A stretch of DNA of 64,000 bases, from positions 60,173 through 124,172 of the forward strand of contig JBEIQS010000002.1 of the NCBI GenBank assembly GCA_040376425.1. The letters are read 5' to 3'. The notes under the pieces were generated by a model, which worked only from the letters and a program-made list of their open reading frames with translations, did no database searches and had not been told where the DNA came from. Position 1 is the stretch's first letter. Every line of letters begins with the position of its first letter. Source of the DNA: Alphaproteobacteria bacterium (GTDB lineage Bacteria > Myxococcota_A > UBA796 > SXON01). Shown in pieces: positions 38 to 19,366 of this stretch. A program made the position numbers and the translations under genes.

Positions 38-556
38 ATGGCTGCCCCCTCCCGTCGTCTCCACCTCCTGCATGCCGCCGCCACGGTTGTGCGCCGTGCG
101 GGCGCCGAAGCGCTGACCTTGGACGCCGTCGCCACCGAAGCGGGCGTCTCCAAAGGTGGCCTGCTCTACCACTTCCCCACCAAAGAAGCGCTCATCCAGG
201 GCATGCTGGTCGCGGCCCTGGATCACTTCGAGGCGGAGCTGGCGCAGCAACCGCAGCAGGAACCCGGCGATCTCGGGCGGGCCTACCTTCGCGTCACCGC
301 CGCCGCCACTGCTGAAGACTCCACGTTGATCGCAGCGATCGCCCAGCGTCCCGAGCTCATCGAACCCATGCGGGAGCGCTACACACGCTGGACCGCCGCG
401 CTGCTGGAAGATGCACGGGACCCGGTGGAGGCCTGGGTGATGCGCCTGACGGCCGATGGCCTGTGGCTGGCCGACGCCCTGAACCTGGCCCCCCCCGATG
501 CTACGCTGCGTGCCCAGATCAACGCCTACTTTTCGGCCCCGCAGGCGAGCCGATGA
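38..556 (+). CDS. TetR/AcrR-family transcriptional regulator
   Basis: 172-aa ORF. The N-terminal HTH stretch LTLDAVATEAGVSKGGLLYHFPTKEAL is typical of the TetR family. Its stop overlaps the next start (ATGA at 553-556). Confidence 0.85.
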   Translation: MAAPSRRLHLLHAAATVVRRAGAEALTLDAVATEAGVSKGGLLYHFPTKEALIQGMLVAALDHFEAELAQQPQQEPGDLGRAYLRVTAAATAEDSTLIAAIAQRPELIEPMRERYTRWTAALLEDARDPVEAWVMRLTADGLWLADALNLAPPDATLRAQINAYFSAPQASR

Positions 557-1584
557 AGGCGCCCTGGCTGCGAAAAATGGCCTGGTTCTCGGCCTTCCTG
601 TCCTTCCCGATCTGGCTGGCTGCCTTTGTGGTTCCACCCTTTCTCCCATTGGATTTAGCAGACAAGGCCATTGCGGCAGCCGTACTGTTGGGCTTCGGAG
701 AGGTGATGTTCTGGGGTCCGGCGGTGATCCTGGGCAATCAGCTCATCAACCGGTTTCGCACTCCCAAAGTCCGCACAGGAAGTAGCTTTTCCGGGCGACG
801 GGTGGCCGTCATTGGCGCCAATGGAGGCCTGGGGGAAGCGATCGCGCGGGCACTGCATCGGGAGGGGGCGGAGCTGGTGTTGATCGGTCGGGATGCCCAC
901 CGCCTGGCGCTGTTAGGGGCGGAGCTGAAGTCAAGCTCTATCCTTGCCGATCTCTCTGTTTCGTCGCAACGGCGGGCTGCGGAAGCAGGCGGTCCGGTGG
1001 ACCATGTGGTGGTCGCCACCGGCATGGACCTGCGCAAGCGGCTGGACGCCCATCAGGATGAAGAGGTGGAGCAACAGCTGGACGTCGCACTTTTGGGGCC
1101 GATCTCCGTGGTTCGCACATGGCTGGCCCAGACCCGCAGCTCACTGCTTCTGCTGGGCGGCTTTGGAGATGGGCGGGTGGCATTGCCCTACTACACGGTG
1201 AACGTGGCCGCCCGCGCCGGGTTGGCGGGCTTTGCCCATAGCGTCAACCGGGAGCTGCGGCAGGAGGGGGACGAGCGCCGCCTGCTCTACTTCTGCCCGG
1301 CCCCGGCCACCACCGCCGCGGAGCAGCCCTACAGTGCCCTGTGGACCCGTATGGGTAGCCCACCCGTGGCACCCGAGCAGGTGGCGGATGCTGTGCTCCA
1401 ATGCCTGCTATCTGGACGCACCCCGGTGACCATGGGCTGGGGAAACCGGGCGCTGGTGGTGGCGGAGCGCCTGTCGGCCGATCTGGTGGACGTCCTGGTC
1501 CACCGGCGCCTTGGCCCTCCGTTGCAGGAGGCCTTCGGAACAAAGACCACCGCAGAATCCTCTGACAATATTTCTCCTTCTTAG
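553..1584 (+). CDS. Membrane-anchored short-chain dehydrogenase/reductase (SDR)
   Basis: Start trimmed to ATG 553 within ORF 463..1584. Hydrophobic N-terminus (FLSFPIWLAAFVVPPFL) is followed by the Rossmann motif VAVIGANGGLGEAIA. Confidence 0.7.
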   Translation: MKAPWLRKMAWFSAFLSFPIWLAAFVVPPFLPLDLADKAIAAAVLLGFGEVMFWGPAVILGNQLINRFRTPKVRTGSSFSGRRVAVIGANGGLGEAIARALHREGAELVLIGRDAHRLALLGAELKSSSILADLSVSSQRRAAEAGGPVDHVVVATGMDLRKRLDAHQDEEVEQQLDVALLGPISVVRTWLAQTRSSLLLLGGFGDGRVALPYYTVNVAARAGLAGFAHSVNRELRQEGDERRLLYFCPAPATTAAEQPYSALWTRMGSPPVAPEQVADAVLQCLLSGRTPVTMGWGNRALVVAERLSADLVDVLVHRRLGPPLQEAFGTKTTAESSDNISPS

Positions 1585-1601
1585 AGGTGAAGGACTTCTC
1601 T

Positions 1602-2150
1602 CTACACCGAATCAATCTTTTGCAGCACAACCACCTTTCGCGCCTTGCCTTCCACCGTGTAGCGTTCCACGTGGAACAGCGTGTAGCCGGGGGCGACCGG
1701 CGCCTCCTCTGTGGCCAGCATCAGCGCCAGAAAGCCCCCCGGACGAAGCAGACGCAGCCCCTCTGGAAGCAGCTCGGCAGGGGGCTTGTAGGCCCGGCTG
1801 ATTACCCCGTCGTAGCTTCCTGCAGGAAGCTCAGCGCTGTCCATGCAGTGCACCGTGGCATTCTTCAAGCCGGCCTCTGCCACCACCGTCTCCAAAAAGG
1901 TGGCACGTTTCTGCCGACGCTCCACCAGCTCCACCCGAGCCTCCGGAAAGGTGGCGGCCAGCACCACGCCCGGAAAACCTGCACCCGAGCCCAGATCGGC
2001 CCATCGTCCTGACACAGAAAGGTTTGCCACAGCCTTTTGTGAATCTTCAAAGTGCGGATCTACCGAACCTGGACCCACAAGATCCATCGCCTTCCGCCAG
2101 CGCTCCAACAGCTTCCGGTAGATCTGCAGCGGCTTGTCCATCGTGCGCAT
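1602..2150 (-). CDS. rsmG: 16S rRNA (guanine527-N7)-methyltransferase RsmG/GidB
   Basis: 182 aa. SAM motif DLGSGAGFPGVVLA followed by VELVERRQKRATFL matches the characteristic GidB layout. Confidence 0.85.
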   Translation of the reverse strand: MRTMDKPLQIYRKLLERWRKAMDLVGPGSVDPHFEDSQKAVANLSVSGRWADLGSGAGFPGVVLAATFPEARVELVERRQKRATFLETVVAEAGLKNATVHCMDSAELPAGSYDGVISRAYKPPAELLPEGLRLLRPGGFLALMLATEEAPVAPGYTLFHVERYTVEGKARKVVVLQKIDSV

Positions 2151-2178
2151 CTATCCCGCCGGGTTATAGGCCGCCCCC

Positions 2179-3582
2179 TTGGACGCTCAGTCCAGGCCCT
2201 TGACAGGTAAACAGATGCGACCGGACGAGTTTGTGGTAGTTCCCGATGGATGGCTTTCGCGGGGACAGGCTTTTGTGCGGGGCGATGGCGCGCAGTTGGT
2301 AATCCCGGGCGGGATTCCCGGAGAGCGGGTGCGCGTCCGTGTGACCTCGCGAACGCCACATCAGGTCTTCGGCAAGGTGATGGACCCCATCCTGGCCCCT
2401 CACCCGGACCGGGTGGCGCCGCCCTGCGAGCGCCTGCCCTATTGTGGGCGTTGTACCTTGATGCATCTGAACGACCGGGGCATCGACAGCGCCCAGCGCA
2501 GCATCATCGAGCTGGCCCTGCGTGAAGCGGGCGTGCAGCCCAAGCTGGAGCCCATCGTCCACAGCCACCAACAGGACAGCATCCACAACATCGAGCTGCT
2601 GGCCGGCTACTCGGACGAAGGCAGCCCGCGACTGGGCGTGACCGCCGCCAAGGGGGGACTGATCCCCATCCCGCTCTGCAACCTGGTGACCCCGGTGCTG
2701 CGCGAGATTATGAAGGTGGCAGCCCACCATATGCGCGCGCTGGAGATCCGCCCGGCCGACGGTCGCGGCGGTACGCTGCGCCGTATCCGCGCCATGCAGG
2801 TGCCGGGCAGCGAGGAAGTGATCCTGGTTCTGGGGACCGTGCGGAAAAATCCGATCCTGCGCGACTATGCCGTGGCGATGGGGGCCGCTGTTCCCCAGCT
2901 TGCGTCCGTCTATCTGCACCGGGAAGAGGACGATCCGACCGGGGACGATCTCTTCCTCACCTACGGCAAGCCGGCCATTGAATGGTCGGCGGGCTGGCTG
3001 CGTCTGAAGGTGGGCCCCAAGGACCCCATGCCGGCGCATCCCACCCTGGCGCTGAAGATGGCCGAAGACGTGGTAACGGCGTTGAACCCCCAAAAAGGTG
3101 ATGCCGTCGTGGATATCGGCGCGGGCCTGGGGCTGCGCACCATGCTGTTGGCCAAGAAGTCAGGCTGGGCTTTGGGCGTGGAGTCCTCCGAGGACGCGGT
3201 GCGGCATGCGCGCGAAAATGCTTCTGCAAATCAGGTTTCTGCCGAGTTCTTTGAAGGCCCGGTCACCGAGGCTCTGGAGAGTCCGCGCCTGGCCGGTCTG
3301 CGGCCGCTGGTCTACCTGGACGCGGAGCGCCGTGGTCTGGAGGGCGAGGTATTGACGGCGCTGGAGCAGCTCTCCCCCCGTCGGATCGCGCTGGCATGCA
3401 CCAACCCGCGCGCCCTGGCGCGGGATATCGCCCTGCTTTCGGGCAAGGGCTATGATCTTCGCCGCATTGTGTCGTATGATGTGTCGCCCTTCACCCCCTT
3501 CGTCGAGAGTGTGGCGCTGCTGGTTTCCCGCGATCTCCGCGGACCCGAGCGCCGTGCCCCTCAGCGGCGGACGGTGCGCTGA
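2179..3582 (+). CDS. TrmA/RlmD (RumA)-family RNA (uracil-5)-methyltransferase
   Basis: TRAM-like N-terminus, Cys cluster CERLPYCGRC...CNL, SAM motif VVDIGAGLGLRT, and a nucleophile-Cys region LACTNPRALARD. The start is uncertain; ATG 2215 is also possible. Confidence 0.7.
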   Translation: MDAQSRPLTGKQMRPDEFVVVPDGWLSRGQAFVRGDGAQLVIPGGIPGERVRVRVTSRTPHQVFGKVMDPILAPHPDRVAPPCERLPYCGRCTLMHLNDRGIDSAQRSIIELALREAGVQPKLEPIVHSHQQDSIHNIELLAGYSDEGSPRLGVTAAKGGLIPIPLCNLVTPVLREIMKVAAHHMRALEIRPADGRGGTLRRIRAMQVPGSEEVILVLGTVRKNPILRDYAVAMGAAVPQLASVYLHREEDDPTGDDLFLTYGKPAIEWSAGWLRLKVGPKDPMPAHPTLALKMAEDVVTALNPQKGDAVVDIGAGLGLRTMLLAKKSGWALGVESSEDAVRHARENASANQVSAEFFEGPVTEALESPRLAGLRPLVYLDAERRGLEGEVLTALEQLSPRRIALACTNPRALARDIALLSGKGYDLRRIVSYDVSPFTPFVESVALLVSRDLRGPERRAPQRRTVR

Positions 3583-3600
3583 CCCCCCTCGGAGGTTGCC

Positions 3601-5085
3601 TTGCTTCTGCTGCTGAGCTCTCTGGCCTTTGCCCTGGATGAAGATCGCGTCCGCGTGCTGGTTTCCGAGTTTCAACCTCGGAACGAGGACAGCAAGGCCC
3701 TGGCCTCCCTGGTGGAAAACTTCCTGGCTTCCCGTCTGAAAGAAAATCAGGACATCGAGCTGGTGCGCCCGGAGCAGCTCCCGCCCTTTCAGGACTATTC
3801 TGCCCGGATCTACCTGGAAGGTTGCCCTGCGGGGGACATGATCGGCTGTACCTACGTCGCCGCCGAGCGCGGCGAGGTGGAGTGGGCGATCACCGGCACC
3901 ACGCGGGTGACCCCCTCTGCCTCCAAAGTGCAGGTGGAAATCTTGGATATCCGCTCCGGTCGCGTGGTGGTCAGCTTCGAGAGCGAGCTGGAGTCCGGCC
4001 AGGACGAAAAATTCGCCGAAGCGGTGGCGGAGATGCTGTCCGACGCCATTGGCGGCTCCTTCAAGCAGAGCGACATCCGGCAGCCCGACCCGGAATCCGA
4101 AGATCCCGAAGGGGATATGCGGAAGATGTCGGACGACGCCATCGCGCAGCAGCTCGACTCCCTCTCCCAGGAGCTGGGTGACATCTCCACCGTGATCAAC
4201 CGCCCGAATACGGTGATTGAACGCCCCGACTACACGATGGACGACCTGGCCGACCAGATGCAGGGTGAAGGCACCAAGCCCTGGGAGCGGCTGAACATGT
4301 CGCCCGGCGAGTACCTGCGCTACAAAAACTCCGGGCGGACCCTGGATGCCTGGCGGCAGCTTGCGACGGGTCGGCAGGGGCAGCTCCTCATTCGGCCGAC
4401 GGTCGGTTTTGGGATTCAGCCCTCCTACAACACCTACTACGGGCGCTATGCCTATGACTCCGGGCAGGTGGTGGATGTGTACACCGCCCAAGCGGTGACC
4501 AACGGCTTTGGCGGCTACTTTACCGCCGGTGTCGCCTACGGTGTCCACCCCTCCCTGGACGTGGGCCTGGACTTCGGCATCGCCTCGGGCCGGGTGACCC
4601 GCGACTACCAGCAGCAGACGGTGGGGCAGACCATCCCCAGTCCGGAAATCTACGCCTTCCAGGGCAGCTCCTTCGTGTTCGGGCCGCGCATTGTCGGCTC
4701 CTTCATCCCCGTCAGCCCCATCCGTCCGGTGGTGGGCGGGGCGGTGCAGTTCTGGCTGGGGGATACGGTACGCAGCAAGGAAGTTCCCCCCGAAGGACTT
4801 GCCAATTTCCCTGCTCCGCTAAGCATCATCGCCGAGGTGATGGTGGGCGCCGAGCTGCGGTTGACCAAGCGCGTCGACTTCTTTGTGCATGTGCCGGTGG
4901 ATCTGACGGTAGGTGGCAGTATTTTCCAGGAAAAACGCGAGGGCAGTGCCGACGTGCTGCAAGCCGTGCAGGCACCGGCGGTAGGCAGCATGGTCAGCGG
5001 CGGTCTGCGGGCCGGCCTGCAGGTGCGGCTGTTTGGAAAGAAAGTCAAAAGCTCGATCTTGGATGAGATGGAGGAGGAACCGTGA
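3601..5085 (+). CDS. Hypothetical secreted/envelope protein
   Basis: 494-aa ORF with a TTG start 5 nt after GGAGG (3591-3595). Short hydrophobic N-terminus LLLLLSSLAFA. The C-terminal half is Gly/aromatic-rich and beta-strand-like. No family recognised. Confidence 0.5.
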   Translation: MLLLLSSLAFALDEDRVRVLVSEFQPRNEDSKALASLVENFLASRLKENQDIELVRPEQLPPFQDYSARIYLEGCPAGDMIGCTYVAAERGEVEWAITGTTRVTPSASKVQVEILDIRSGRVVVSFESELESGQDEKFAEAVAEMLSDAIGGSFKQSDIRQPDPESEDPEGDMRKMSDDAIAQQLDSLSQELGDISTVINRPNTVIERPDYTMDDLADQMQGEGTKPWERLNMSPGEYLRYKNSGRTLDAWRQLATGRQGQLLIRPTVGFGIQPSYNTYYGRYAYDSGQVVDVYTAQAVTNGFGGYFTAGVAYGVHPSLDVGLDFGIASGRVTRDYQQQTVGQTIPSPEIYAFQGSSFVFGPRIVGSFIPVSPIRPVVGGAVQFWLGDTVRSKEVPPEGLANFPAPLSIIAEVMVGAELRLTKRVDFFVHVPVDLTVGGSIFQEKREGSADVLQAVQAPAVGSMVSGGLRAGLQVRLFGKKVKSSILDEMEEEP

Positions 5086-8960: not shown

Positions 8961-9905
8961 GTGCCCATGCCCGCCCATACCCCAGAAGCTGCCGTTCGCG
9001 GCCCTTTGATCGCCATCGGGGGCGCCGAGGACAAGCAGAAAGAACGTCGGGTGCTCGCACGCCTTACGCAGCTTGCAGGAGGAAGCTCGGCGTGCATTGC
9101 TGTGGTGCCGACGGCATCCATGGTACCGGACGAGCTTTCTGCTGTCTACCTGCGGGTTTTCCGGGAGTTGGGCGCGGGTGATGTGCATGTGATCCATGCG
9201 ACCCGCCGCGCCGATGCGTCCGACCCGGACCAGCTTGCCCGCCTGCAGGAGTGCAGCCTGATCTTCTTCACCGGCGGCGACCAGCTTCGTCTGGTGGCGA
9301 CCCTGGGCGGCACGCCACTGGCTCAGGTCATCCGCCGCATGAATGCGCATGGGGTGCCGGTGGCGGGGACTTCGGCGGGGGCCGCGGCCATCTGCCAGCA
9401 CATGATCGGTCGGGGGCGCTCCGGCCAGGTTGCAGGCCGCCATATGGTGAGCCTCGCGCCCGGTCTGGGGCTGACCAACCGCATTGTGGTGGACCAGCAC
9501 TTTTCGCAGCGGCATCGGATGGGACGGCTGTTTTCTGCGGTGGCAATGAACCCCTTCCTGGTGGGCGTCGGCATCGACGAGGACACGGCCGCCTGTATCA
9601 ACGGGAACAACCAGCTTGAAGTCTGGGGGCGCGGCTGTGTGACCGTGGTGGACGGCTCAGAGCTGGTCTACACCGACGTCCACGAGATCGAAGGGCGGGC
9701 CCCGGCCTCGGTGCTGGGAACCAAGGTCCACGTGCTGACACCTGGTTGTACCTTTGACCTGCTGAATCGGACGGCTGAGGGACCTCCTCCTCCGCCCCCG
9801 CGCAAGCCGCCCGCGCCGCCACCGGAGCCCGAAGGCCCAGCGGCCACAGAAGCCCCGGCGGCCACAGAAGCCCCGGCGGCCCCCAAAAAGGGCGCGCGGC
9901 GCTGA
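8961..9905 (+). CDS. Cyanophycinase (peptidase S51) with Pro/Ala-rich C-terminal tail
   Basis: IAIGGAEDK..., FFTGGDQLRL and GTSAGAAAI (nucleophile Ser context) are present. The tail is PPPPPPRKPPAPPPEPEGPAATEAPAATEAPAAPKK. Confidence 0.75.
   Translation: MPMPAHTPEAAVRGPLIAIGGAEDKQKERRVLARLTQLAGGSSACIAVVPTASMVPDELSAVYLRVFRELGAGDVHVIHATRRADASDPDQLARLQECSLIFFTGGDQLRLVATLGGTPLAQVIRRMNAHGVPVAGTSAGAAAICQHMIGRGRSGQVAGRHMVSLAPGLGLTNRIVVDQHFSQRHRMGRLFSAVAMNPFLVGVGIDEDTAACINGNNQLEVWGRGCVTVVDGSELVYTDVHEIEGRAPASVLGTKVHVLTPGCTFDLLNRTAEGPPPPPPRKPPAPPPEPEGPAATEAPAATEAPAAPKKGARR
9840..9881 (+). repeat. 18-bp tandem repeat (gcggccacagaagccccg, 2.3 copies) encoding ATEAPA repeats
   Basis: Read directly at 9840-9857, 9858-9875 and a partial copy at 9876-9881, inside the cyanophycinase tail. 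Confidence 0.8.
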
Positions 9906-10911: not shown

Positions 10912-12009
10912 ATGCTGACCCACGTCCACTTCACCGGAATCCAGTCGCTTGCTGATGTCTCCCTGGACCTGAGCCCCTTTACTGTGCTGGTGGGGCCGAA
11001 TGGATGTGGGAAGAGTACGCTGCTGAATGAGATTGTGCGGTTGTGTGCGTTTACGCAGGCGGCGGGCCCCCGGGTGTCGAACATCTACGGCAGTGCGGGT
11101 TTGGTGTTTGAGTCCGACCACCCGGACACCGTAGCAACAACGAACGGTAACTTTCGACAGCAATGGGCCGGAACAAGTGACCGGGGAGCCAAATATCAGC
11201 TTCGCTTGGAACCGATCTCGACGCCCAAACACTGGAGCGACCGGATCGAAGTAAAGGTCACCGGACCTGACGGTACCCAAGCCACTCTGAACAATACCAT
11301 CATAAATTTTCGCGATAACCTTGAAAGCCTATTGTCTGCGCACCTTGGCTGGCGGGCCCAACGCCTCGCTCTCATACCCAGCGCCATCGCCAGCCCCTCT
11401 GAAACCACCCTGACTGAGTTGGCCCCAAGCGGCTACGGTCTCGTCACCATTCTGAAGGACATGGCCGGAGATCACACGCAGGCCTACCTTCAGCTCCAAG
11501 CCGACCTGCAAACGGTCGTGCCGCATTTCCGAAGCCTGACCTTTGGAAAGGGCCAGCGCCGGAGCGCAGACGGGCAGGGGAATACCCCCCTCCACACCCT
11601 CAAGCTGGTCATGTCTCAAGGAGAGCTGCCCGCCCACCGCGTCAGCGACGGCACACTCTTGGCGCTGGCCCTGCTCACCGCAGTCCACAACCCCGGCATG
11701 CCCAACTTGATCCTGATGGATGACATCGATCACGGCCTGCACTTAGGTGCCCAGCTCAAGTTGATGCAGGCGATCCGTACCGCGCAGAAACGACGGCCGG
11801 ACCTTCAAATTCTGTGTACCACCCACTCGCCCTACTTTATGCACGACGTCGCCGTGGAAGAGGTGCGGGTGATGGCCTTGGATAGCAACGGGCATACACA
11901 CGTGCGTCCCCTCGCCGACCATCCGGACGCCGCTGCATTCCGCACCGCGATGACGGCGGGAGAGCTGTGGGCCAACCTGGGAGAAGAGTGGGTGGCGGGC
12001 AATGGCTGA
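10912..12009 (+). CDS. ABC/SMC-type AAA ATPase (AAA_15/AAA_21-like), candidate defence ATPase
   Basis: Walker A GPNGCGKST, signature-like VSDGT, Walker B LILMDDIDHGLH and H-loop CTTHSP are present. SD GGAGGG lies upstream. GC is locally lowered: 25 G+C in the 60 nt from 11281. Confidence 0.8.
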   Translation: MLTHVHFTGIQSLADVSLDLSPFTVLVGPNGCGKSTLLNEIVRLCAFTQAAGPRVSNIYGSAGLVFESDHPDTVATTNGNFRQQWAGTSDRGAKYQLRLEPISTPKHWSDRIEVKVTGPDGTQATLNNTIINFRDNLESLLSAHLGWRAQRLALIPSAIASPSETTLTELAPSGYGLVTILKDMAGDHTQAYLQLQADLQTVVPHFRSLTFGKGQRRSADGQGNTPLHTLKLVMSQGELPAHRVSDGTLLALALLTAVHNPGMPNLILMDDIDHGLHLGAQLKLMQAIRTAQKRRPDLQILCTTHSPYFMHDVAVEEVRVMALDSNGHTHVRPLADHPDAAAFRTAMTAGELWANLGEEWVAGNG

Positions 12010-12769
12010 GCGGGTGCTGATCGCGGGAGAGGATCAACTCCACCGGGCGTTGGGGCTGTGGTTACTGCGGTGGGCGGCGCAAGATGTGGGTAAAGAGCCT
12101 CCGCCCCCGGTAGGCCTACGACCGGACGAGCGCGACTTCTTTATGCACCAAGGAGTACGAGATCTGCTGCGAACCAAGCTGAAATTGCCGCCCGGCAGGC
12201 CGTTGTTTCAGGACTCGGCCGGGCCGCTGCGCGGCCATCCTCACGCACGTCTGGCCGCCGACGTGGTCACCCTTGCAGAAATGACCCTTCTTCCTGGGAG
12301 TCTAATCTTTGTATTAGAGGATACCGATGGAAAGAAGGATCGGGTAGACGCTGCAAAAGCTGCACTGGCTTGGTTCGCGGAAAAGCCGAGGAAATCGAAG
12401 GCGCTGGTGATCGGATGCCCGGAGCAGGATGCGGAGGGCTGGGTCGTGGCGGGTCTGGCGGGCGATCCAGCTCTGAAGGAGCGCCGCAGAAGGGCCAAAA
12501 AGCGGCTCTCCTTCGACCCCTGCTTGGAGCCGGAGCGCCTGACATCGGCGCCAAACGAGGCCTTGCAGGATGCCAAGCGGGTGCTGGCCTTCTTGTTGGG
12601 CGACGAGGACCGGTTGGAAGATGGCACGTCAAAGGCGCCGGATGCGCGGGGGCTGGACGAGCTGCTGGACCGGGCTTTTGCTGATTTTGCTGGGCTCGTG
12701 GCCTCTGCGGCGGCCGAGCGCACGCGGCTGAAGCAGGCCGTGGAAGACTTGCGCGACGGGCTGAGATAG
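12002..12769 (+). CDS. TOPRIM-like (DUF4276/RloB/DUF4435-like) partner protein
   Basis: The ATG overlaps the ATPase stop by 8 nt (ATGGCTGA). The ordered acidic motifs VLIAGEDQ, FVLEDTDG and CPEQDAEGWVV resemble the E / DxD / E-x-W pattern of OLD-type TOPRIM partners. This is a motif-level call only. Confidence 0.5.
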   Translation: MAERVLIAGEDQLHRALGLWLLRWAAQDVGKEPPPPVGLRPDERDFFMHQGVRDLLRTKLKLPPGRPLFQDSAGPLRGHPHARLAADVVTLAEMTLLPGSLIFVLEDTDGKKDRVDAAKAALAWFAEKPRKSKALVIGCPEQDAEGWVVAGLAGDPALKERRRRAKKRLSFDPCLEPERLTSAPNEALQDAKRVLAFLLGDEDRLEDGTSKAPDARGLDELLDRAFADFAGLVASAAAERTRLKQAVEDLRDGLR

Positions 12770-12790: not shown

Positions 12791-12818
12791 TTCTCAGTAT
12801 AGGCGTCTATACTGAGAA
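12791..12818 (-). terminator. AT-rich perfect hairpin between convergent genes
   Basis: ttctcagtata-ggcgtc-tatactgagaa gives an 11-bp stem. On the minus strand it is followed by TTACGCTTTTTT. Confidence 0.5.
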
Positions 12819-13470: not shown

Positions 13471-15528
13471 CTAGGGATGCGCAATCACCACCAGGGCCGG
13501 CGCCCGGCGCACCACCGTCTCCAGGCACAGGGCCATGGTCTCCGGGTCCAGGGCCGCAAAGCTCTCGTCCAGCACCACCACATCCGCCTCCTGCAGGATG
13601 GCCCGGGCCAGCATCACCCGGCTCTGTTCCCCATGCGACAACTTCCAGCCTCCCTCGCCCACCATCTGTAGAATTCCGGCAGGCATCCGCTCCAAAAGCG
13701 GTCCCAGCCCCAGCTCTACGCAGAGCTGGGTGGCCTCGGCCAGGGTTTCCATGGGGGCGGGCCAGGGGCGTCCCATCAGCAGGTTGAAGGCCAGGGTTTC
13801 GGTAACCAGGTGGTTCTCGTGGAACTGCGGCGTCAGCACCACCCGGCTGCGCCACCGACTGCTGCCCAGCGCTGCCCGGTCCAGCCCCCCAAACAGCAGC
13901 AGTCCCGACGTGGGTGCGCGAATACCCGCCAAGATACTGCCTAAAGTTGACTTGCCTGCGCCTGAAGCCCCCTCCAAGAGTATCCGATCCCCCCGCTCCA
14001 CCCGCAGGTTCAGCCCGTTCAGCGTGGGCGCCTGCCCCGGATGGGCAAAAACCAGGTTTCTGGCTTCCAACAAGGCTCCCTCCGGCCGCCCTTCCACCGC
14101 CGGGACCCCCTCTCTCTGCCCCCCCGCCCGCACCAGCTCCAGGATGCTCCGACCCGCCACCCCCGCACCGATCGCCGACTCCAGCCCGCCGACCAGCTTC
14201 AGCAGCGCCCCGTGGGCCAGCAGCACCCCGCCCAGCCCCACCGCCAGCGAGCCGGTGCTCGCCCCCATCAGCAGCCCCGGCAGCAGGGCCGCGAGCCCCA
14301 GAATCCGCCACAGCCCCGGAAACAGGCCATTCAGCAGGATTCCCAGCCGATCCAGCCGCCGCGCCTCGCCCAGGTAGCGGTCCAGCAGCCGATCCTCCTG
14401 CGCATGCCACGCGTCGGGAGGCAACTGCGCAATCCGCGTCCGGTAGCCCACCATATTTTCCAGGATGTCCGCGCTCAGGCTCATCCGCCCATCGGTCCAC
14501 CGCAGCCGCTGCCGCGCGTACAGGGTGCCCAGCAGCCCCGCCACCGCACAGCCCCCCACCAGCGCCAGCATCGCCAGACCGCCCCCCGCACCATTCCAAA
14601 GTACCCAGCTTGCTCCAGCCACCTCTACCACGGCTGCCAGCGAAGCAAAGCCTGCGCCCAGCGCCAGCGCCTCCACCGCCTGCGACTCGTCCACCCGCGC
14701 AATGAGCTGCCCCACCCCCGCCTGACGTATACGCCCCGGCTCCAACTTTAAGGTTCCCAACAGCAATCGCTGCTTCAGCAGCACGCCCGCCCCCAGCGCC
14801 AGGTTCCCCTGCACCCAGCTTATCGCCAGGTTCAGCGGCAGCCCGCACAGCATCAGCAGCACCCAGCCCCAAAACCAGGCCGCATCCACCTGGCCCGCCA
14901 GCAGCCCCGCACCCATCACCCACCAGCCGCCAATCGCCAAAAGCTGGCTCAGCAGCAACAGAATCAACAACTGTGCAAGACGATGACCCAGCCGCTGCTC
15001 GCCAAGCTGCTGGGACAGCCGCTCCGCCGCCGGACGGAGGAGGAAGAAGCGCGGCGGCGTCATCCCTTCCGACAGGTAGTCCGCCGAGAATTGGGCACCC
15101 CCAAGCCGCTGTCCCAGCAGGTGCCGCCGGGCCGACTCCGAGCGGATGCCCGCGCGTGCCAGCACCCGGTCCACCTGGGCCCCCGCGCGCCCCTCCACCG
15201 TCTTCCGCAGCTCCGCACACAAGAGCGCCTTCGGCAGGCGGGGTTGGCTCAAGTCCGGCGCCAAAAGTCCGGGCGATTCGCCCCCCATAAGAATGCCAAG
15301 CCAGCCCTGCGCCGTTGCCACCAAAGCCGGGGCCGAGCTGCTCAAAAAGGCCTCCACATCGGCATAGCCCAGCTCCAGCAATTCGGCGTGGAGCCCCATC
15401 CGGGCGGCGATCCGCTCGATGTCCAAGCCGCTGCTGCTTCCGGGGTCCTCCGGCGCAAAGCCGCTCTGCCGGCCCAGACGCTCCACCAGCTCGCTCAGGC
15501 GCTCCTCCGGCCAATAGGGAAGGGTCAT
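13471..15528 (-). CDS. Bacteriocin-type ABC exporter permease/ATPase without peptidase domain (NHLM ABC2-like)
   Basis: Start trimmed to ATG 15528 (ATGA overlap with the upstream stop). TM region followed by an NBD with GASGAGKSTL, LSHGEQSR and VVVLDESFAALD. Confidence 0.8.
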   Translation of the reverse strand: MTLPYWPEERLSELVERLGRQSGFAPEDPGSSSGLDIERIAARMGLHAELLELGYADVEAFLSSSAPALVATAQGWLGILMGGESPGLLAPDLSQPRLPKALLCAELRKTVEGRAGAQVDRVLARAGIRSESARRHLLGQRLGGAQFSADYLSEGMTPPRFFLLRPAAERLSQQLGEQRLGHRLAQLLILLLLSQLLAIGGWWVMGAGLLAGQVDAAWFWGWVLLMLCGLPLNLAISWVQGNLALGAGVLLKQRLLLGTLKLEPGRIRQAGVGQLIARVDESQAVEALALGAGFASLAAVVEVAGASWVLWNGAGGGLAMLALVGGCAVAGLLGTLYARQRLRWTDGRMSLSADILENMVGYRTRIAQLPPDAWHAQEDRLLDRYLGEARRLDRLGILLNGLFPGLWRILGLAALLPGLLMGASTGSLAVGLGGVLLAHGALLKLVGGLESAIGAGVAGRSILELVRAGGQREGVPAVEGRPEGALLEARNLVFAHPGQAPTLNGLNLRVERGDRILLEGASGAGKSTLGSILAGIRAPTSGLLLFGGLDRAALGSSRWRSRVVLTPQFHENHLVTETLAFNLLMGRPWPAPMETLAEATQLCVELGLGPLLERMPAGILQMVGEGGWKLSHGEQSRVMLARAILQEADVVVLDESFAALDPETMALCLETVVRRAPALVVIAHP

Positions 15529-18230
15529 CGCGCTTCCTCTGCCGGGGCCGATCCCTCCAACAAACCCGCCTTCAGACGCAGCCGCCGCCAGCGCACATCG
15601 CCCCACTGCTCAGATTGCAGCCGCTGCTCCGCCTCCACCAGCTCCCGGTAGCGACTGGGCTCCTGCATCAACTGAGCAGGATCGCCGTCCTCTTTCACCA
15701 CCCCATCTTCAATCACCAGCACTCGGGGGAAGCCCAGCGTCTCCTGCATGTCGTGGGTCACACACAAGAGCGTGGAGCCCGCCCAGAGCTGCCGCGCCGC
15801 GGCCATCAGCCGCTGCCGGTTGGGGCGATCCAGTCCCCGAAAAGGCTCATCCAACAAGGCCAAGCCGGTACCACTCCGCAGCATGGCGCGGCCCAGCCGC
15901 AGCCGCTGCCCCTCTCCCCCCGACAGCCTACAACCGCCCTCGCCCAGCTCGGTCTGCATGCCCTCGGGCAGGCGCTCCAGCACCGGCAGCAACTGCGCCG
16001 CCTCCAGCACCGTCGCCAGACCATCCCCATCGGCGCCATAGCGCAGGTTCTCGATCAGTGTGCGCGACCACAGCCGAATCTCAGGGTCTACCCAGGCAAT
16101 TCGCCGCCGCAGCGGGTACAGTGCCGCCCCGGTCAGCGGCTGCCCATCCACCCGGATCTCGCCGCTCTGCGGCCGCAGCCAGCCCAGAAACAGCCCGAGC
16201 AGGCTGGACTTTCCGGCTCCGGACCGCCCCACGATGGCCACATGCTCGCCCGCCGCCACCTCCAGGTCGATGCCGTGCAGCACCGGGTGCCCCCCCGCCA
16301 CCGCCGTCACCCCCTGCAAGGACAGCGCCGCCGGCACGGAATTTGCTTGTTCCAACTGTTCTGGGGGAAGCTCCCCTTCCACGGGGGTGCCCAGGGGCTC
16401 CAGCAGGCGCAGCACCACATTTCGTAGTCCTGGATACATTCTGGCCTGCATCACGAGGCCCTGCATCAGCATGGGAATCCGTAGTGTCCACCACAAAACC
16501 AGCAGGGCCTCGCCGCCTGCCCCCTCGCGCCACAGGTGCAGCCCCACCAACAGCACCACTCCGCTCAGCGCGGCCAATCCCGAGAAAAACTCGGCGCCCA
16601 CCGAAAAGGCGAGGAGACCCCGCGCCGAGCGCTGCCACTCGGAGAGCAGGGTCTCCTGGGCCTGCCGGATCGTCGTCTCTGCGCCGTGCGCACGGATGGG
16701 AATCACGCCCAACAAGGCATCTAAATAGAAGCCCATCAGCGAGGCCTGCTGGGTTCGCATCCGCAGATCGCGCTCTTCCATGGCCGGCTGCACCAGGAGT
16801 GCCGGCAGCGCAGAGAGCAGCAGCAGCGCACTAAGGACCGGCAAACACCAGGGATCCAGCAGCAGCAGCCCGATGGAGGCGGCGATCAGCCCGCCGGCGA
16901 TCTGCACCAGGCCCCGCGCAAATGCGGGCACTTGCCGCAGCGTGTACAGAGAGTGGCTGCGGCTGGCCAGGTCGGTGATGGTGCGGGAGTGGAAGTAGCG
17001 GTCGCCAAGGCGGGGAATCCGGGAGAGGAAGGCGAGGCGGAGGCGGGTTTCCAGACGCCGCCCCAGCCACAGGCCCCCGGCCGTGCCCGACAGCTCCGCG
17101 ATCAGCAGCACCACCAGAAAAAAGGTGATTCCCAGGCCTGCTTCCAAGCGCGCCACCGGACCACCCAAGAGGCTGCCCACCTCCAAAAAGCTTCGGAACA
17201 GCAGCGCTTCGACCACCGCCCCAACGGCCGCCGCAAAGCCGACGCCCAGCACGGCACCTAAGGGCAGCAGCGCCGCCCAGCCTGGCCACAGCGGCAGCCT
17301 CGTCAGGTCGTCTTCTGGCGGAAAATCATGGGGAGAGGCCAGCAAAGACCAGAGAATTCGGCCCGGACGCGCGGGCGGCGTCGACAGCGCTGCTTGCAGC
17401 TCTACCGGCAGGCTCTCCCGCGCCACGACCTCGGTGGCCCGCCCCTGGAAACAGAGCACCACGGCGCCGACAATTCGGAGTTGCTCGCCCTCCTCCTCGG
17501 AAAAACCCGGCGCGGAGCGGTCCGGTGGTCGCGCCGACCACAGCCCCTCGGGGATCACCTCCATCGGCCGCTCTGCGGCGATGGCGTCCTGTGTAAAAAG
17601 CTCGACCAGACGCCCGGTTTGTGGCCCCCGACGGAGCGCGCCTGCCTCCACCAACTGCCCCACCTGACGCGTGGCCGCATCCAGCGCCGCCAGATCCTGC
17701 CAGCGCCCCGTGGCCAGGATCTCCTCACGAAAGGCAGGGCGAACGTGGAGATCCCGCAGGATAGCCGCGAGTACGCGCTGCGAGTCTTCGTCGGCAAACC
17801 ATGCCAGCCAGTCCGCCGCGGGCACATGCATGACGTGTACATGCAGGCGGGGGCGCAGCGAAGAAATGCGCTCCAAACGCCGACCAGTCCCCGGGTCCAT
17901 CACCTGGAGAAAGCTACCGTAGCGACCCCAGAGCAGCTCAAAATGGGTGAGCCCCAGGCCCGAGCGGGTCACCACCATGCCCGGAAGGCAGCGGGAGAGG
18001 GGGTGGAGGAGGAGGTCGATGGGCATCACCCGCTGCTCGCAGCGCAGTCCGAGCTGGTTGCAGACATCCTCCAGCACGTCGATGGAGGTGCCGTCCACCG
18101 AGGTCTGGCAGGCCTCCCGCAGCCGGCCCAGGTCCACCTCGATATCAAAACCCGCCAGCGCGGCCTTTAATGCCGCCACCCCGCAGTCCATCGACGAGGT
18201 CTGGATCACCTCGGGGACCAGCCGCCTCAC
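15525..18230 (-). CDS. C39-peptidase / permease / ATPase bacteriocin ABC exporter (NHLM ABC1-like)
   Basis: Start trimmed to GTG 18230 (GTGA overlap with the HlyD stop). C39 motifs QTSSMDCGVAALK and LTHFELLWG are present. NBD has GRSGAGKSSL, LSGGEGQRL and LALLDEP. Confidence 0.8.
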   Translation of the reverse strand: MRRLVPEVIQTSSMDCGVAALKAALAGFDIEVDLGRLREACQTSVDGTSIDVLEDVCNQLGLRCEQRVMPIDLLLHPLSRCLPGMVVTRSGLGLTHFELLWGRYGSFLQVMDPGTGRRLERISSLRPRLHVHVMHVPAADWLAWFADEDSQRVLAAILRDLHVRPAFREEILATGRWQDLAALDAATRQVGQLVEAGALRRGPQTGRLVELFTQDAIAAERPMEVIPEGLWSARPPDRSAPGFSEEEGEQLRIVGAVVLCFQGRATEVVARESLPVELQAALSTPPARPGRILWSLLASPHDFPPEDDLTRLPLWPGWAALLPLGAVLGVGFAAAVGAVVEALLFRSFLEVGSLLGGPVARLEAGLGITFFLVVLLIAELSGTAGGLWLGRRLETRLRLAFLSRIPRLGDRYFHSRTITDLASRSHSLYTLRQVPAFARGLVQIAGGLIAASIGLLLLDPWCLPVLSALLLLSALPALLVQPAMEERDLRMRTQQASLMGFYLDALLGVIPIRAHGAETTIRQAQETLLSEWQRSARGLLAFSVGAEFFSGLAALSGVVLLVGLHLWREGAGGEALLVLWWTLRIPMLMQGLVMQARMYPGLRNVVLRLLEPLGTPVEGELPPEQLEQANSVPAALSLQGVTAVAGGHPVLHGIDLEVAAGEHVAIVGRSGAGKSSLLGLFLGWLRPQSGEIRVDGQPLTGAALYPLRRRIAWVDPEIRLWSRTLIENLRYGADGDGLATVLEAAQLLPVLERLPEGMQTELGEGGCRLSGGEGQRLRLGRAMLRSGTGLALLDEPFRGLDRPNRQRLMAAARQLWAGSTLLCVTHDMQETLGFPRVLVIEDGVVKEDGDPAQLMQEPSRYRELVEAEQRLQSEQWGDVRWRRLRLKAGLLEGSAPAEEAR

Positions 18231-19366
18231 GCCCCTCCCCCGATGTGCAGCCCCACCACGTCCAAAACCAAGCCCAGCGGCGTACTTTCCTCCACAGAGA
18301 TCTCCACCCGCCCCGGCAGGCCATGGCCCAAGAGCAGCGGGCTCTCCCCCACCTCCAGCTCCACCCGCAGCCCCTCCGGGCCCGGCTCTTCTGCCACCGA
18401 GCGCACCTGCAGCGGCAGTGCGCCGAAGCGGATCCACGAGAATCCATCCAGGTACATCCTCGCGGACTGCCCCTCCTGCACCCGACCCGCCGCCGCTATC
18501 GGTAGCCAGGCCACCACCTGAAGGTCCGCCGTTGGCACCACCGTGGCCAGCCGCTCGCCCACCCCCACCCGCTGCCCAATGGTAAGCTGGCGTACCAAAC
18601 TCACCCTTCCGTCCACCGGTGCCCGGATGCGGTGGCGCTCCACCTGCTCCTCCCAGGCCGCCACGCGGGTCTCGGCGGTGGAAAAGGCCTCCTGCAAGGA
18701 AGTCAGCTCGTCGGTGAGTCCCCGGCGGCGTGTGTCCCGCGCTGCGGCATTGGCCCGGTGCTGATCCTGAAGCAAGGCCAATTCCTGGCGGGCTGCCGCG
18801 GCCGTGGCGGACAACGAGGCGAAGTCGGCACCCTCCGCCTGCACCTGCGCGGCGGAGATCCCGCCCGAATTCACCAGGCGCAACGCCGACTCATGGACCA
18901 GCTTCGCCTGCTGTGCCGCCACCTCCGCCACCTCCAGCCGGGAGCGTCCCACCCGCTCGGCCTGCGTCTCGGCCTCGGCCTCCGCCGCCAAGCGCGCCTG
19001 CTCCTCGCTCTGCCGGGCCTCCGCACTGCGCAGCCGCTGCTCTGCCGCGTCGCGACGCGCCTGCTCTTCCTCCAGCTTCAACCAGATATCCTGGGCATCC
19101 AGCTCGATCAGGATTTCATCCGCCTGAACCGGTCGGCCCAGCTCGAACAACACCCGCGCCACCTTGCCTTCCAGCGGGCTCTGGACCGGCGCGGCCAGAC
19201 TCTCGACCCGCGCCGTCGTGCTGGCCACACGTACGGTGAGCGGCGCCAGGGTAAACCACAAGGTCCACACAAATCCCAGGGACACGCACACAAAAATCCA
19301 CAGCAGCCAGCCGCGCGGGCTGTCCGCATTCAGGGAGCGCAGGGATCGGGTGAAGGGCAGGGGCAT
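18227..19366 (-). CDS. HlyD-family membrane fusion/secretion protein
   Basis: N-terminal TM helix, a long coiled-coil (EEEQARRDAAEQRLRSAEARQSEEQARLAAEAEAE), then a beta-barrel domain. First gene of the exporter triad. Confidence 0.8.
   Translation of the reverse strand: MPLPFTRSLRSLNADSPRGWLLWIFVCVSLGFVWTLWFTLAPLTVRVASTTARVESLAAPVQSPLEGKVARVLFELGRPVQADEILIELDAQDIWLKLEEEQARRDAAEQRLRSAEARQSEEQARLAAEAEAETQAERVGRSRLEVAEVAAQQAKLVHESALRLVNSGGISAAQVQAEGADFASLSATAAAARQELALLQDQHRANAAARDTRRRGLTDELTSLQEAFSTAETRVAAWEEQVERHRIRAPVDGRVSLVRQLTIGQRVGVGERLATVVPTADLQVVAWLPIAAAGRVQEGQSARMYLDGFSWIRFGALPLQVRSVAEEPGPEGLRVELEVGESPLLLGHGLPGRVEISVEESTPLGLVLDVVGLHIGGGA

Follow-up and report, generated by a model that had tools for sequence, protein, structure and literature searches.

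The window analysed here is a stretch of 64,000 nucleotides (nt), and the element in question is a pair of adjacent genes on its forward strand, termed gene A and gene B in the following, which a first-pass annotation had proposed to form an anti-phage module of an ATP-binding cassette (ABC)-type ATPase and a Toprim-like protein. The two open reading frames (ORFs) of 365 and 255 amino acids (aa) and their overlap of 8 nt were found as claimed, and the pair comprises the following elements (positions refer to the window):

10912..12009, forward strand: gene A, 365 aa, ATG start, predicted ABC-type (AAA_21/AAA_15) ATPase, HEC-01A-like

12002..12769, forward strand: gene B, 255 aa, ATG start, predicted alpha/beta core, Toprim-like acidic motifs and helical C-terminal region (residues 156-254)

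12002..12009, forward strand: overlap of A and B, 8 nt (ATGGCTGA), the start codon of B lying within the 3' end of A

From its layout the 8-nt overlap is predicted to couple the translation of both genes. In the genomes of relatives an A homolog is located directly 5' of B and on the same strand at every B locus for which upstream sequence was available. The two genes overlap in 23 of the 26 complete pairs, 16 times by 4 nt (ATGA/GTGA) and three times, the window included, by 8 nt. A and B represent an obligate, conserved and translationally coupled module of an ABC ATPase and a small protein.

Among the cluster representatives, one protein of 417 aa (P0046) aligns with its N-terminal part to residues 238-343 of A (48% identity) and matches the B profile with its residues 191-400. 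It may be a natural fusion of A and B, such as PARIS also shows, or the product of a frameshift where the two genes overlap.

Based on the profile searches, the product of gene A matches the Pfam family AAA_21 (PF13304) with an E-value of 5.9e-23 and a score of 82.8 bits, which is above the gathering score of 27, and furthermore the families SMC_N and AAA_15. Its best match in PADLOC is the HEC-01A model PDLC04178 (E 1.4e-29), and nine more HEC-01A models match with E-values of 7e-18 or better. These are accompanied by matches to mad3 (2.6e-26), AriA (4e-24), PDC-M25A (1.6e-22) and PDC-M31A (1.6e-15), and by weaker or further ones to ATPase-Toprim_I-B (4e-14), AbiLi (1.7e-13), PDC-M07A and PtuA. 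The AriA models involved are generic: PDLC02980, which gives the E-value of 4e-24, comprises 304 positions, is as long as the Pfam model AAA_21 and aligns with its C-terminal half, while the match to PDLC02979 covers the P-loop only; HEC-01A scores above AriA. Gene A fails the NCBIfam model MAD3 (NF047739), reaching 83.6 bits (E 1.6e-23) versus a cut-off of 420 bits, and stays far under the equivalog cut-off of PtuA in NCBIfam. The nearest solved structures are those of PtuA, the ATPase of retron Ec83 and a class 1 OLD protein. By these comparisons A is classified as a short ABC-type ATPase of the clade that serves OLD, PARIS, AbiL, MADS and HEC-01, with HEC-01A as its closest relative. The four ATPase motifs that had been named in the first-pass annotation are all present and were found to be conserved in an alignment of 22 members of the A family:

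10993..11019, forward strand: Walker A motif or P-loop GPNGCGKST, residues 28-36; GxNGxGK[ST] is kept in the aligned members

11644..11655, forward strand: ABC signature-like motif SDGT, residues 245-248; S[DE]GT in all aligned members

11707..11730, forward strand: Walker B motif and D-loop LILMDDID, residues 266-273, with Asp271 at the position of the usual catalytic Glu

11818..11832, forward strand: H-loop TTHSP, residues 303-307; T[TS]HSP in all aligned members

The Walker B region has an unusual feature. In each of the 22 aligned ATPases paired with a B protein, a second Asp comes after the Walker B Asp (D270-D271 in the window, positions 11719-11724), and the pattern reads hhhhD-D-[IVL]-[DE]. 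At the same site the ATPase from Meiothermus that partners a true DUF4276 protein reads IEEPE. Since Asp replaces the catalytic Glu after Walker B, the motif suggests a slow, switch-like ATPase.

The product of gene B has no match in Pfam, PADLOC or NCBIfam at E<=1. Searches of PDB sequences with B and with a profile of 81 family members retrieved nothing meaningful, an NCBIfam scan over all 81 members gave nothing relevant, and the family consensus had no match in Pfam even at E<=10. A word-indexed search detected relatives in only 8 clusters; an exhaustive profile search covering 1.84 billion representatives (50% identity) retrieved 1,118 of them, 886 at E<=1e-10 and nearly all with a length of about 250 aa. 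All listed relatives are unnamed hypothetical proteins without a precomputed Pfam domain.

In the alignment of the 81 members the mean column identity is 26%. D107, E145, W147, L180 and K192 are invariant, and E10, D109, G151, F171, P173, V194 and L195 are conserved in at least 90% of the sequences. The acidic motifs VLIAGEDQ, FVLEDTDG and CPEQDAEGW, to which the first-pass annotation had drawn attention, are present in B, and their conservation at such a low overall identity argues that they are not due to chance. The residues and segments concerned are located as follows:

12029..12031, forward strand: Glu10, directly after strand beta1 (residues 4-9 in the model), candidate Toprim glutamate, conserved in at least 90%

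12089..12244, forward strand: residues 30-81, insertion (about 50 residues) at the place of beta2-alpha2 in canonical Toprim and DUF4276, gapped versus DUF4276 in hhalign

12320..12328, forward strand: Asp107-Thr-Asp109 (DxD), directly after strand 100-105, aligns with D70-x-D72 of DUF4276

12434..12442, forward strand: Glu145-Gly-Trp147 (E-x-W), at the helix start after the last core strand, aligns with E114-x-W116 of DUF4276

12512..12520, forward strand: Phe171-Asp-Pro173, conserved motif with F171 and P173 conserved in at least 90%

12575..12577, forward strand: Lys192 (in AKRVL), candidate catalytic lysine of the helical C-terminal region, invariant in the 81 sequences

Two sub-clades can be distinguished in the B family. 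The protein of the window belongs to the clade reading 'GED...DTDG...DAE[AG]W...PN.A..DAKRVL', and the larger sub-clade reads 'VCEA...RDsD...KRECWVLAGF'. A scan of genomes for the sub-clade of the window, using a degenerate DNA pattern for PN.A..DAKRVL, returned 33 loci, 25 of them with a genuine B gene. These loci mostly originate from Myxococcota, including Polyangia, Nannocystis and Chondromyces apiculatus DSM 436.

The first-pass annotation had assigned B to the Toprim nucleases. DUF4276 (Mad4) and RloB belong to the Toprim superfamily, whose defining features are a Glu behind beta1 and a DxD motif behind beta3 (PMC12065111). Class 2 OLD proteins possess a two-metal site consisting of the Toprim Glu, the DxD motif, a Glu from the first helix behind the core, and a Lys contributed by the helical domain (PMC6755086); in Burkholderia (Bp) OLD this catalytic set comprises E400, D455xD457, E508, which binds metal B, and K562 (PMC6755086). 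The AlphaFold2 model of B is a confident one (pLDDT, for predicted local distance difference test, 88.4; predicted template modelling score, pTM, 0.87). It starts with a strand (4-9) directly followed by E10, continues with a helix (12-28), the insertion (30-81), a helix (82-95), a strand (100-105) with D107xD109 behind it, a helix (112-126), a strand (134-138) and the helix 144-154 carrying E145xW147, and ends in a helical tail (156-254) that carries K192. By conservation and model, E10 and D107xD109 of B correspond to the Glu and the DxD motif of the Toprim definition. Furthermore, the order E, DxD, ExW and K is the same in B (E10, D107xD109, E145, K192) and in DUF4276 (E11, D70xD72, E114, K169). 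By position, E145 may be regarded as analogous to the metal-B residue Glu508 of Bp OLD, and K192 is a candidate for the catalytic lysine, comparable to K562 of Bp OLD and K169 of DUF4276.

Remote profile links point in the same direction. The HEC-01B model PDLC04196 is matched by 17 of the 81 B-family members at E<=0.01 (best E 1.2e-5), and some members match further HEC-01B models as well as PDC-M25B and PDC-M31B, the latter two with E-values of 2e-4 to 1e-3. The family consensus matches the HEC-01B model PDLC04200 over residues 84-198 (E 3e-5). These links of the B family to HEC-01B, PDC-M25B and PDC-M31B parallel those of A to HEC-01A, PDC-M25A and PDC-M31A. One of the 81 members matches DUF4276 (E 0.0039) and one matches RloB (E 0.0034). 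In a comparison of the B family with the DUF4276 profile by hhalign, the DxD strand and the ExW helix were aligned locally with a weak E-value of 0.021. With the secondary structure of the models and looser settings E10-E11 also came into register (E 0.04, probability 6%), and in the extended alignment the invariant lysines K192 of B and K169 of DUF4276 are 3 residues out of register. Based on these comparisons B is a probable, but not demonstrated, DUF4276-like or Toprim-like protein that is strongly remodelled and lies at the limit of detection.

The genes flanking the pair vary from locus to locus. In 8 of 28 distinct loci it is located inside a known defence operon, BREX or DISARM, and directly adjoins the genes of that operon; since no locus extends over more than 8 kb, this tally is a lower bound. 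The order DrmD-A-B-DrmMI was detected in the DISARM operons of two loci (L001 and L032) which are among the closer relatives of the window pair, the B protein of L001 being 51% identical. In three Polyangiaceae/Myxococcales metagenome-assembled genomes (MAGs; L010, L033 and L039) the pair is embedded in BREX, with PglX, A, B and BrxC on one strand, and at three further loci (L027, L025 and L009) BrxC or a BrxC-like gene comes after A and B. In the available sequence of the window, of L002, of L003/L024 and of others, BREX and DISARM genes are absent. The pair is mobile between genomic contexts, and it is frequently found inside BREX and DISARM operons. Such embedding within other defence systems was the criterion by which the HEC systems were discovered (Payne et al., bioRxiv 10.1101/2024.01.29.577857). 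The first-pass proposal of an ATPase plus a small protein as a module of the anti-phage type agrees with this embedding of the relatives as well as with the affiliation of the ATPase to the AAA_15/21 clade. A tblastn search of plasmids with A gave no match at 1e-10; at a relaxed threshold of 1e-3 the closest homolog was located on the Meiothermus taiwanensis plasmid pMtWR-220, where it overlaps a DUF4276 gene by 4 nt within a type I restriction-modification (R-M) operon (hsdM-...-hsdR).

Some of these loci show further features. The gene order at L010, L033 and L039 is pglX - A - B - brxC; in type 1 BREX, brxC precedes pglX. The type I R-M operon on pMtWR-220 (L121, 49830-60951) is dense with embedded modules, with the order hsdM - DUF262 - hsdS - DUF4433 (DarT-like) - macro (DarG-like) - AAA ATPase - DUF4276 - hsdR. 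In an uncultured Myxococcaceae MAG (L023) a gene on the minus strand (1195-4446), convergent to B and directly after it, encodes a fusion of a UvrD helicase and a PD-(D/E)XK nuclease of 1083 aa with GajB-like PADLOC matches (E 4e-63); it could be an AddA-like repair protein or a helicase partner in the style of Gabija or class 2 OLD. In a Nannocystis MAG (L034) an ORF of 1612 aa (237-5075, minus strand) lies directly 3' of A-B and has no match in Pfam or PADLOC at the thresholds used.

In the window itself the pair occurs as a lone copy surrounded by housekeeping genes. The near neighbours encode glutamine synthetase III (GS-III), a cyanophycinase-like Peptidase_S51 protein, ORFs of 321 aa and 151 aa, and ABC exporter and HlyD proteins; DNA polymerase I (Pol I), phosphoglucose isomerase (PGI), a penicillin-binding protein (PBP) and DnaJ are encoded farther away. 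The claim that the pair is located between unrelated genes holds insofar as the adjoining ORFs, 321 aa upstream and 151 aa downstream, have no match in Pfam or PADLOC. However, A starts only 39 nt 3' of the upstream gene on the same strand, so that read-through transcription is possible. A sigma-70-like promoter was not found, in a scan that is uninformative for an unknown organism of high guanine-plus-cytosine (GC) content. The GC content of the pair is 61.8% versus 64.8% in the window, which places it among the lowest 5.3% of segments of the same size, and its GC at third codon positions is 0.71-0.73 versus 0.76-0.83 in the neighbouring genes. The lower GC described before, including the count of 25 G+C in 60 nt from 11281, is a real but modest dip; other parts of the window reach values as low as that of the pair. 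An AT-rich hairpin behind the pair had likewise been described correctly:

12791..12818, no strand assigned: AT-rich hairpin with a stem of 12 base pairs, between gene B and the convergent 151-aa ORF on the minus strand, free energy -17.9 kcal/mol

The hairpin is more stable than all 200 shuffled sequences (0/200 as stable, z -4.9). Because its T-run is on the minus strand, where a terminator-like site was called nearby, it more likely serves as the terminator of the convergent 151-aa gene or as a bidirectional one.

The surroundings were furthermore compared with 80 metagenome loci anchored on GS-III, and neither A nor B was present in any of these, which speaks against a place in the core genome. 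The best of these comparators have a GS-III of 66-68% identity and are syntenic only for the gene upstream of GS-III, the synteny being lost downstream. They are therefore too distant to reveal an empty site or to date an insertion, and the comparison shows no more than the non-conservation of the pair at these loci. The 321-aa flanking protein has no relatives in the metagenome contigs.

Further observations were made in other parts of the window. Among the ORFs of at least 280 aa, one encodes a protein with a REase-ARP domain (PF22558, E 8e-37) and one a protein with an eCIS_core domain (E 1.4e-20). At 13471-18437 (minus strand) and adjacent to it, there are genes for two HlyD_3 proteins and for two large ABC_tran proteins of 711 and 970 aa; the N-terminal part of the 970-aa protein includes a stretch with Cys, SSMDCGVAALKA, which resembles a C39 peptidase domain, and the genes look like an export cluster for bacteriocins or peptides that adjoins the pair. 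The 3' end of the 314-aa Peptidase_S51 gene contains a perfect 16-nt repeat (9847-9880; CAGAAGCCCCGGCGGC, two copies 18 nt apart), which encodes a repeated ...EAPAAT... tail.

Taken together, we hold with moderate confidence that A and B constitute a two-gene defence module of an ABC ATPase and an effector, kin in kind to HEC-01, Mad3/Mad4, PARIS and the split OLD systems. By analogy with PARIS (PMC11464382) and OLD (PMC6755086), A would act as a sensor or switch which keeps B inactive, and the detection of a cue from a phage or mobile element by A would lead, through the binding or hydrolysis of ATP, to the release or activation of B. B would be a phosphodiesterase that depends on divalent metal and has a Toprim-like core in strongly remodelled form, in which, as in the class 2 OLD nucleases, E10 and D107/D109 would bind metal A and E145 metal B, while K192 would stabilise the transition state. 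Activated B may then cleave nucleic acid of the host or the invader (tRNA or DNA) and thereby stop the infection. For the interaction with A or the substrate, B offers its insertion 30-81 and its helical tail as candidate surfaces.

Several observations weigh against this explanation, and most of them concern the fold of B. Its five-residue site is judged from the order in the sequence and the secondary-structure layout of the model, which has three clear core strands and, in place of a clear beta2-alpha2, merely 2-residue bridges at the beta2 site. Foldseek comparisons of the model with PDB detected no Toprim protein among the top 50 matches (best E 0.06, template modelling score <=0.3), and there was no match at E<=0.001 in the viral library BFVD, where generic alpha/beta folds were returned. 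The best PDB matches, all non-significant, were Arf GTPases, SIS domains and enoyl reductases, which share a generic Rossmann-like fold; Foldseek alignments are local and the top matches already spanned the core of B. As a positive control the DUF4276 partner of the A homolog on pMtWR-220 was used. Its model (pLDDT 86) has the canonical order beta1-alpha1-beta2-alpha2-beta3-alpha3-beta4-alpha4, and its top match was the Toprim region of Burkholderia OLD (6nk8_A, E 9e-4, probability 1.00). Since the control finds the OLD Toprim and B finds none, the model of B appears measurably further from the canonical Toprim than DUF4276. The earlier assignment of B to the Toprim proteins agrees with the order of the motifs and the remote profile links, the structural comparison returned no Toprim match, and the hhalign support for homology to DUF4276 is weak (E 0.02-0.04, probability 2-6%). 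The other points concern mobility and function. PADLOC gave no specific match other than gene A over the 63 window ORFs of at least 280 aa, no tRNA or integrase was seen around the pair, and the repeats flanking it are weak and at chance level. B and the B consensus had no tblastn match on 72,556 plasmids, and the motif of the window sub-clade had 0 matches on viral contigs. The proposed horizontally acquired defence islet is plausible but unproven: the GC dip is modest, and tRNA, repeats, integrase and other defence genes among the ORFs of that size are missing from the window. Signs of a defence island or of mobility are found instead in other genomes, through the embedding in BREX and DISARM. 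Finally, in E. coli the HEC-01 prototype protected against none of the phages tested (bioRxiv 10.1101/2024.01.29.577857), so that the known kind of system is itself unvalidated.

The frequent embedding also allows for another explanation, in which the pair does not act autonomously but assists or guards BREX, DISARM or type I R-M, for instance by sensing their inhibitors, and the window copy is an orphan after the loss of its partner system and may be inactive or repurposed. Besides the 8 of 28 loci within BREX or DISARM operons, among them the two DISARM-embedded closer relatives, and the A homolog on a plasmid within a type I R-M operon, this would be in line with the trigger of PARIS, Ocr, which is an inhibitor of type I R-M and BREX (PMC11464382). 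Taking into account, however, that many loci, including the window, have no BREX or DISARM gene in the available sequence, that both window genes are intact with every motif conserved, and that embedded genes of the same type were autonomous in tests (HEC-02 to HEC-08), a dependence of this kind seems unlikely. It seems quite unlikely, too, that B is not a nuclease and uses its acidic residues for another role with metals or nucleotides or only for binding A, so that the pair would be unrelated to the cleavage of nucleic acids. The missing Toprim match in spite of a working control, the generic Rossmann-like folds among the top structural matches, the insertion in place of beta2-alpha2 and the lack of any profile match of B itself would suit such a role. 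Nevertheless, the matches to other folds are all non-significant as well, B shares the succession E, DxD, ExW and K with DUF4276 and OLD, and the recurrent profile links to HEC-01B, PDC-M25B and PDC-M31B match the links of A.

Patchy distribution, variable context and tight translational coupling would also suit a selfish addiction or toxin-regulator cassette, in which a toxic B would be restrained by A and the pair would persist by post-segregational killing. The toxin-antitoxin (TA) label of AAA_21 in Pfam ('putative AbiEii toxin, Type IV TA system') and the missing defence phenotype of HEC-01 might be read in the same way. We consider this very unlikely, since the label is the name of a family and not a tested function, B is unmatched on the 72,556 plasmids and its sub-clade motif on viral contigs, and the repeated insertion in defence operons points to defence. 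A housekeeping ATPase-nuclease for DNA repair or recombination, comparable to SbcCD, Rad50-Mre11 or RecF-RecR, appears highly improbable. Such a role could be suspected from the matches of A to SMC_N/RecF-type models, from the housekeeping neighbours in the window (Pol I, PGI, PBP, DnaJ, GS-III) and from RecR, which carries a Toprim domain. RecR is among the Toprim structures that have been compared with OLD (PMC6755086). However, with about 1,100 clusters in 1.84 billion representatives the family is rare, the pair is absent from all 80 GS-III-syntenic loci, its GC and third-position GC are under those of the neighbours, and the ATPase has just 365 aa and relatives embedded in BREX and DISARM.

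Within the favoured explanation, that of a defence module, a more far-reaching version can be formulated, which we put forward only tentatively and regard as rather doubtful. The pair would be the founding member of an uncatalogued branch of ABC-ATPase/Toprim-like systems, in which B lacks the canonical beta2-alpha2 and instead has a recognition insertion of about 50 residues, the Asp-Asp motif of A acts as a slow switch, and the module serves as a PARIS-like guard that is triggered once BREX, DISARM or type I R-M has been shut down by phage inhibitors. Such a guard role would explain the frequent insertion inside the operons of these systems, the module being a back-up coupled to the primary defence.

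Provided that B is active as a remodelled nuclease of the Toprim-like type, Pfam and NCBIfam overlook about 1,100 clusters of such effectors, and PADLOC largely does so too. The uncatalogued B family mostly derives from Myxococcota and other environmental lineages, and because it escapes these resources, PADLOC, and probably other profile-based annotation too, would undercount the ATPase-nuclease systems in those phyla. The insertion of the pair between pglX and brxC and between drmD and drmMI bears on whether embedded modules guard host systems against anti-restriction proteins. The invariant Asp in place of Glu bears on whether the binding or the hydrolysis of ATP drives the activation of the effector in this class, which was left open for the HEC systems (bioRxiv 10.1101/2024.01.29.577857). 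If the pair is inactive, as HEC-01 was when tested in E. coli, it would be one more unvalidated candidate. Specialists will hardly be surprised by another pair in which an ABC ATPase is accompanied by a Toprim-like protein; more noteworthy are the size of the uncatalogued family, its embedding in BREX and DISARM and the atypical catalytic site of the ATPase.

Among the named defence systems, HEC-01 is the most similar. This PADLOC candidate consists of the ABC ATPase HEC-01A and the DUF4276-type Toprim-like protein HEC-01B (Payne et al., bioRxiv 10.1101/2024.01.29.577857), the tested HEC-01B being a 'DUF4276 family protein' that was modelled on the OLD Toprim (supplement of the same paper). 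HEC-01 and the pair described here have in common a two-gene operon in which the ATPase precedes a small protein, an ATPase whose best match is HEC-01A, and the embedding in other defence systems, and HEC-01B models are weakly matched by B-family members and by the consensus. They differ in that B has 255 aa instead of about 190-220 aa, about 50 inserted residues in place of beta2-alpha2 and no Foldseek match to Toprim, and in that A has D-D at Walker B and not D/E-E. The B protein of the window itself matches 0 PADLOC families, and thus no HEC-01B model, at E<=1, and a tool requiring both genes should therefore miss the system. The embedded genes of the same type in HEC-02 to HEC-08 worked autonomously when tested (bioRxiv 10.1101/2024.01.29.577857). 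ATPases of FAM_00005 with other partner families were merged into HEC-01 or named PDC-M25 and PDC-M31 (bioRxiv 10.1101/2024.01.29.577857). A matches the ATPases of these two untested PADLOC candidates, and the logic of the cassette is shared, but the matches on the B side are marginal and absent for the window protein. To our knowledge, nothing has been published on the fold or function of PDC-M25 and PDC-M31 beyond their status as candidates.

PARIS resembles the pair in combining the ABC ATPase AriA with the DUF4435 Toprim nuclease AriB, which are split and sometimes fused (compare P0046); its ATPase scaffold releases the nuclease, which cleaves tRNA (PMC11464382). However, A has 365 aa versus about 480 aa in AriA, B has no match to AriB/DUF4435 (PF14491) at E<=1, nor has any of the 81 members at E<=0.01, and PARIS is typically located on P4 satellites or prophages while the sub-clade motif of the pair was not found on viral contigs. 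With Mad3/Mad4 of MADS and the ATPase-DUF4276 pairs embedded in R-M operons, the pair shares the likeness of A to mad3 and the order E, DxD, ExW and K. It differs from these in that A is under the MAD3 cut-off and B has no match to DUF4276 (PF14103) at E<=1; the window scan of the 63 ORFs revealed no other mad genes, the mad models giving only generic ABC matches to mad3. In OLD of classes 1 and 2 and in AbiL (AbiLi/AbiLii-RloB) an ABC ATPase and a metal site of the Toprim type likewise occur together, but OLD carries both on one polypeptide and its Toprim domain can be recognised, whereas A and B are two genes, and B has no match to Toprim_OLD (PF20469) and no Foldseek match to 6nk8 or 6p74. 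RloB (PF13707)/AbiLii is not matched by the window protein at E<=1 either. The membership in one of the known families that had been considered in the first-pass annotation was consequently not borne out: at E<=1 B matches neither DUF4276 nor DUF4435/AriB, RloB/AbiLii or mad4, and A fails the cut-offs of MAD3 and PtuA. As judged by these profile and fold comparisons, the agreement with HEC-01 is confined to the ATPase half, and for the window proteins the tests for DUF4276, AriB, RloB/AbiLii, MAD3 and OLD are negative. The pair probably works like the systems of the HEC-01/DUF4276 kind and is distantly related to them, with an effector family that has a visibly remodelled core, lies outside Pfam and NCBIfam and is marginal in PADLOC.

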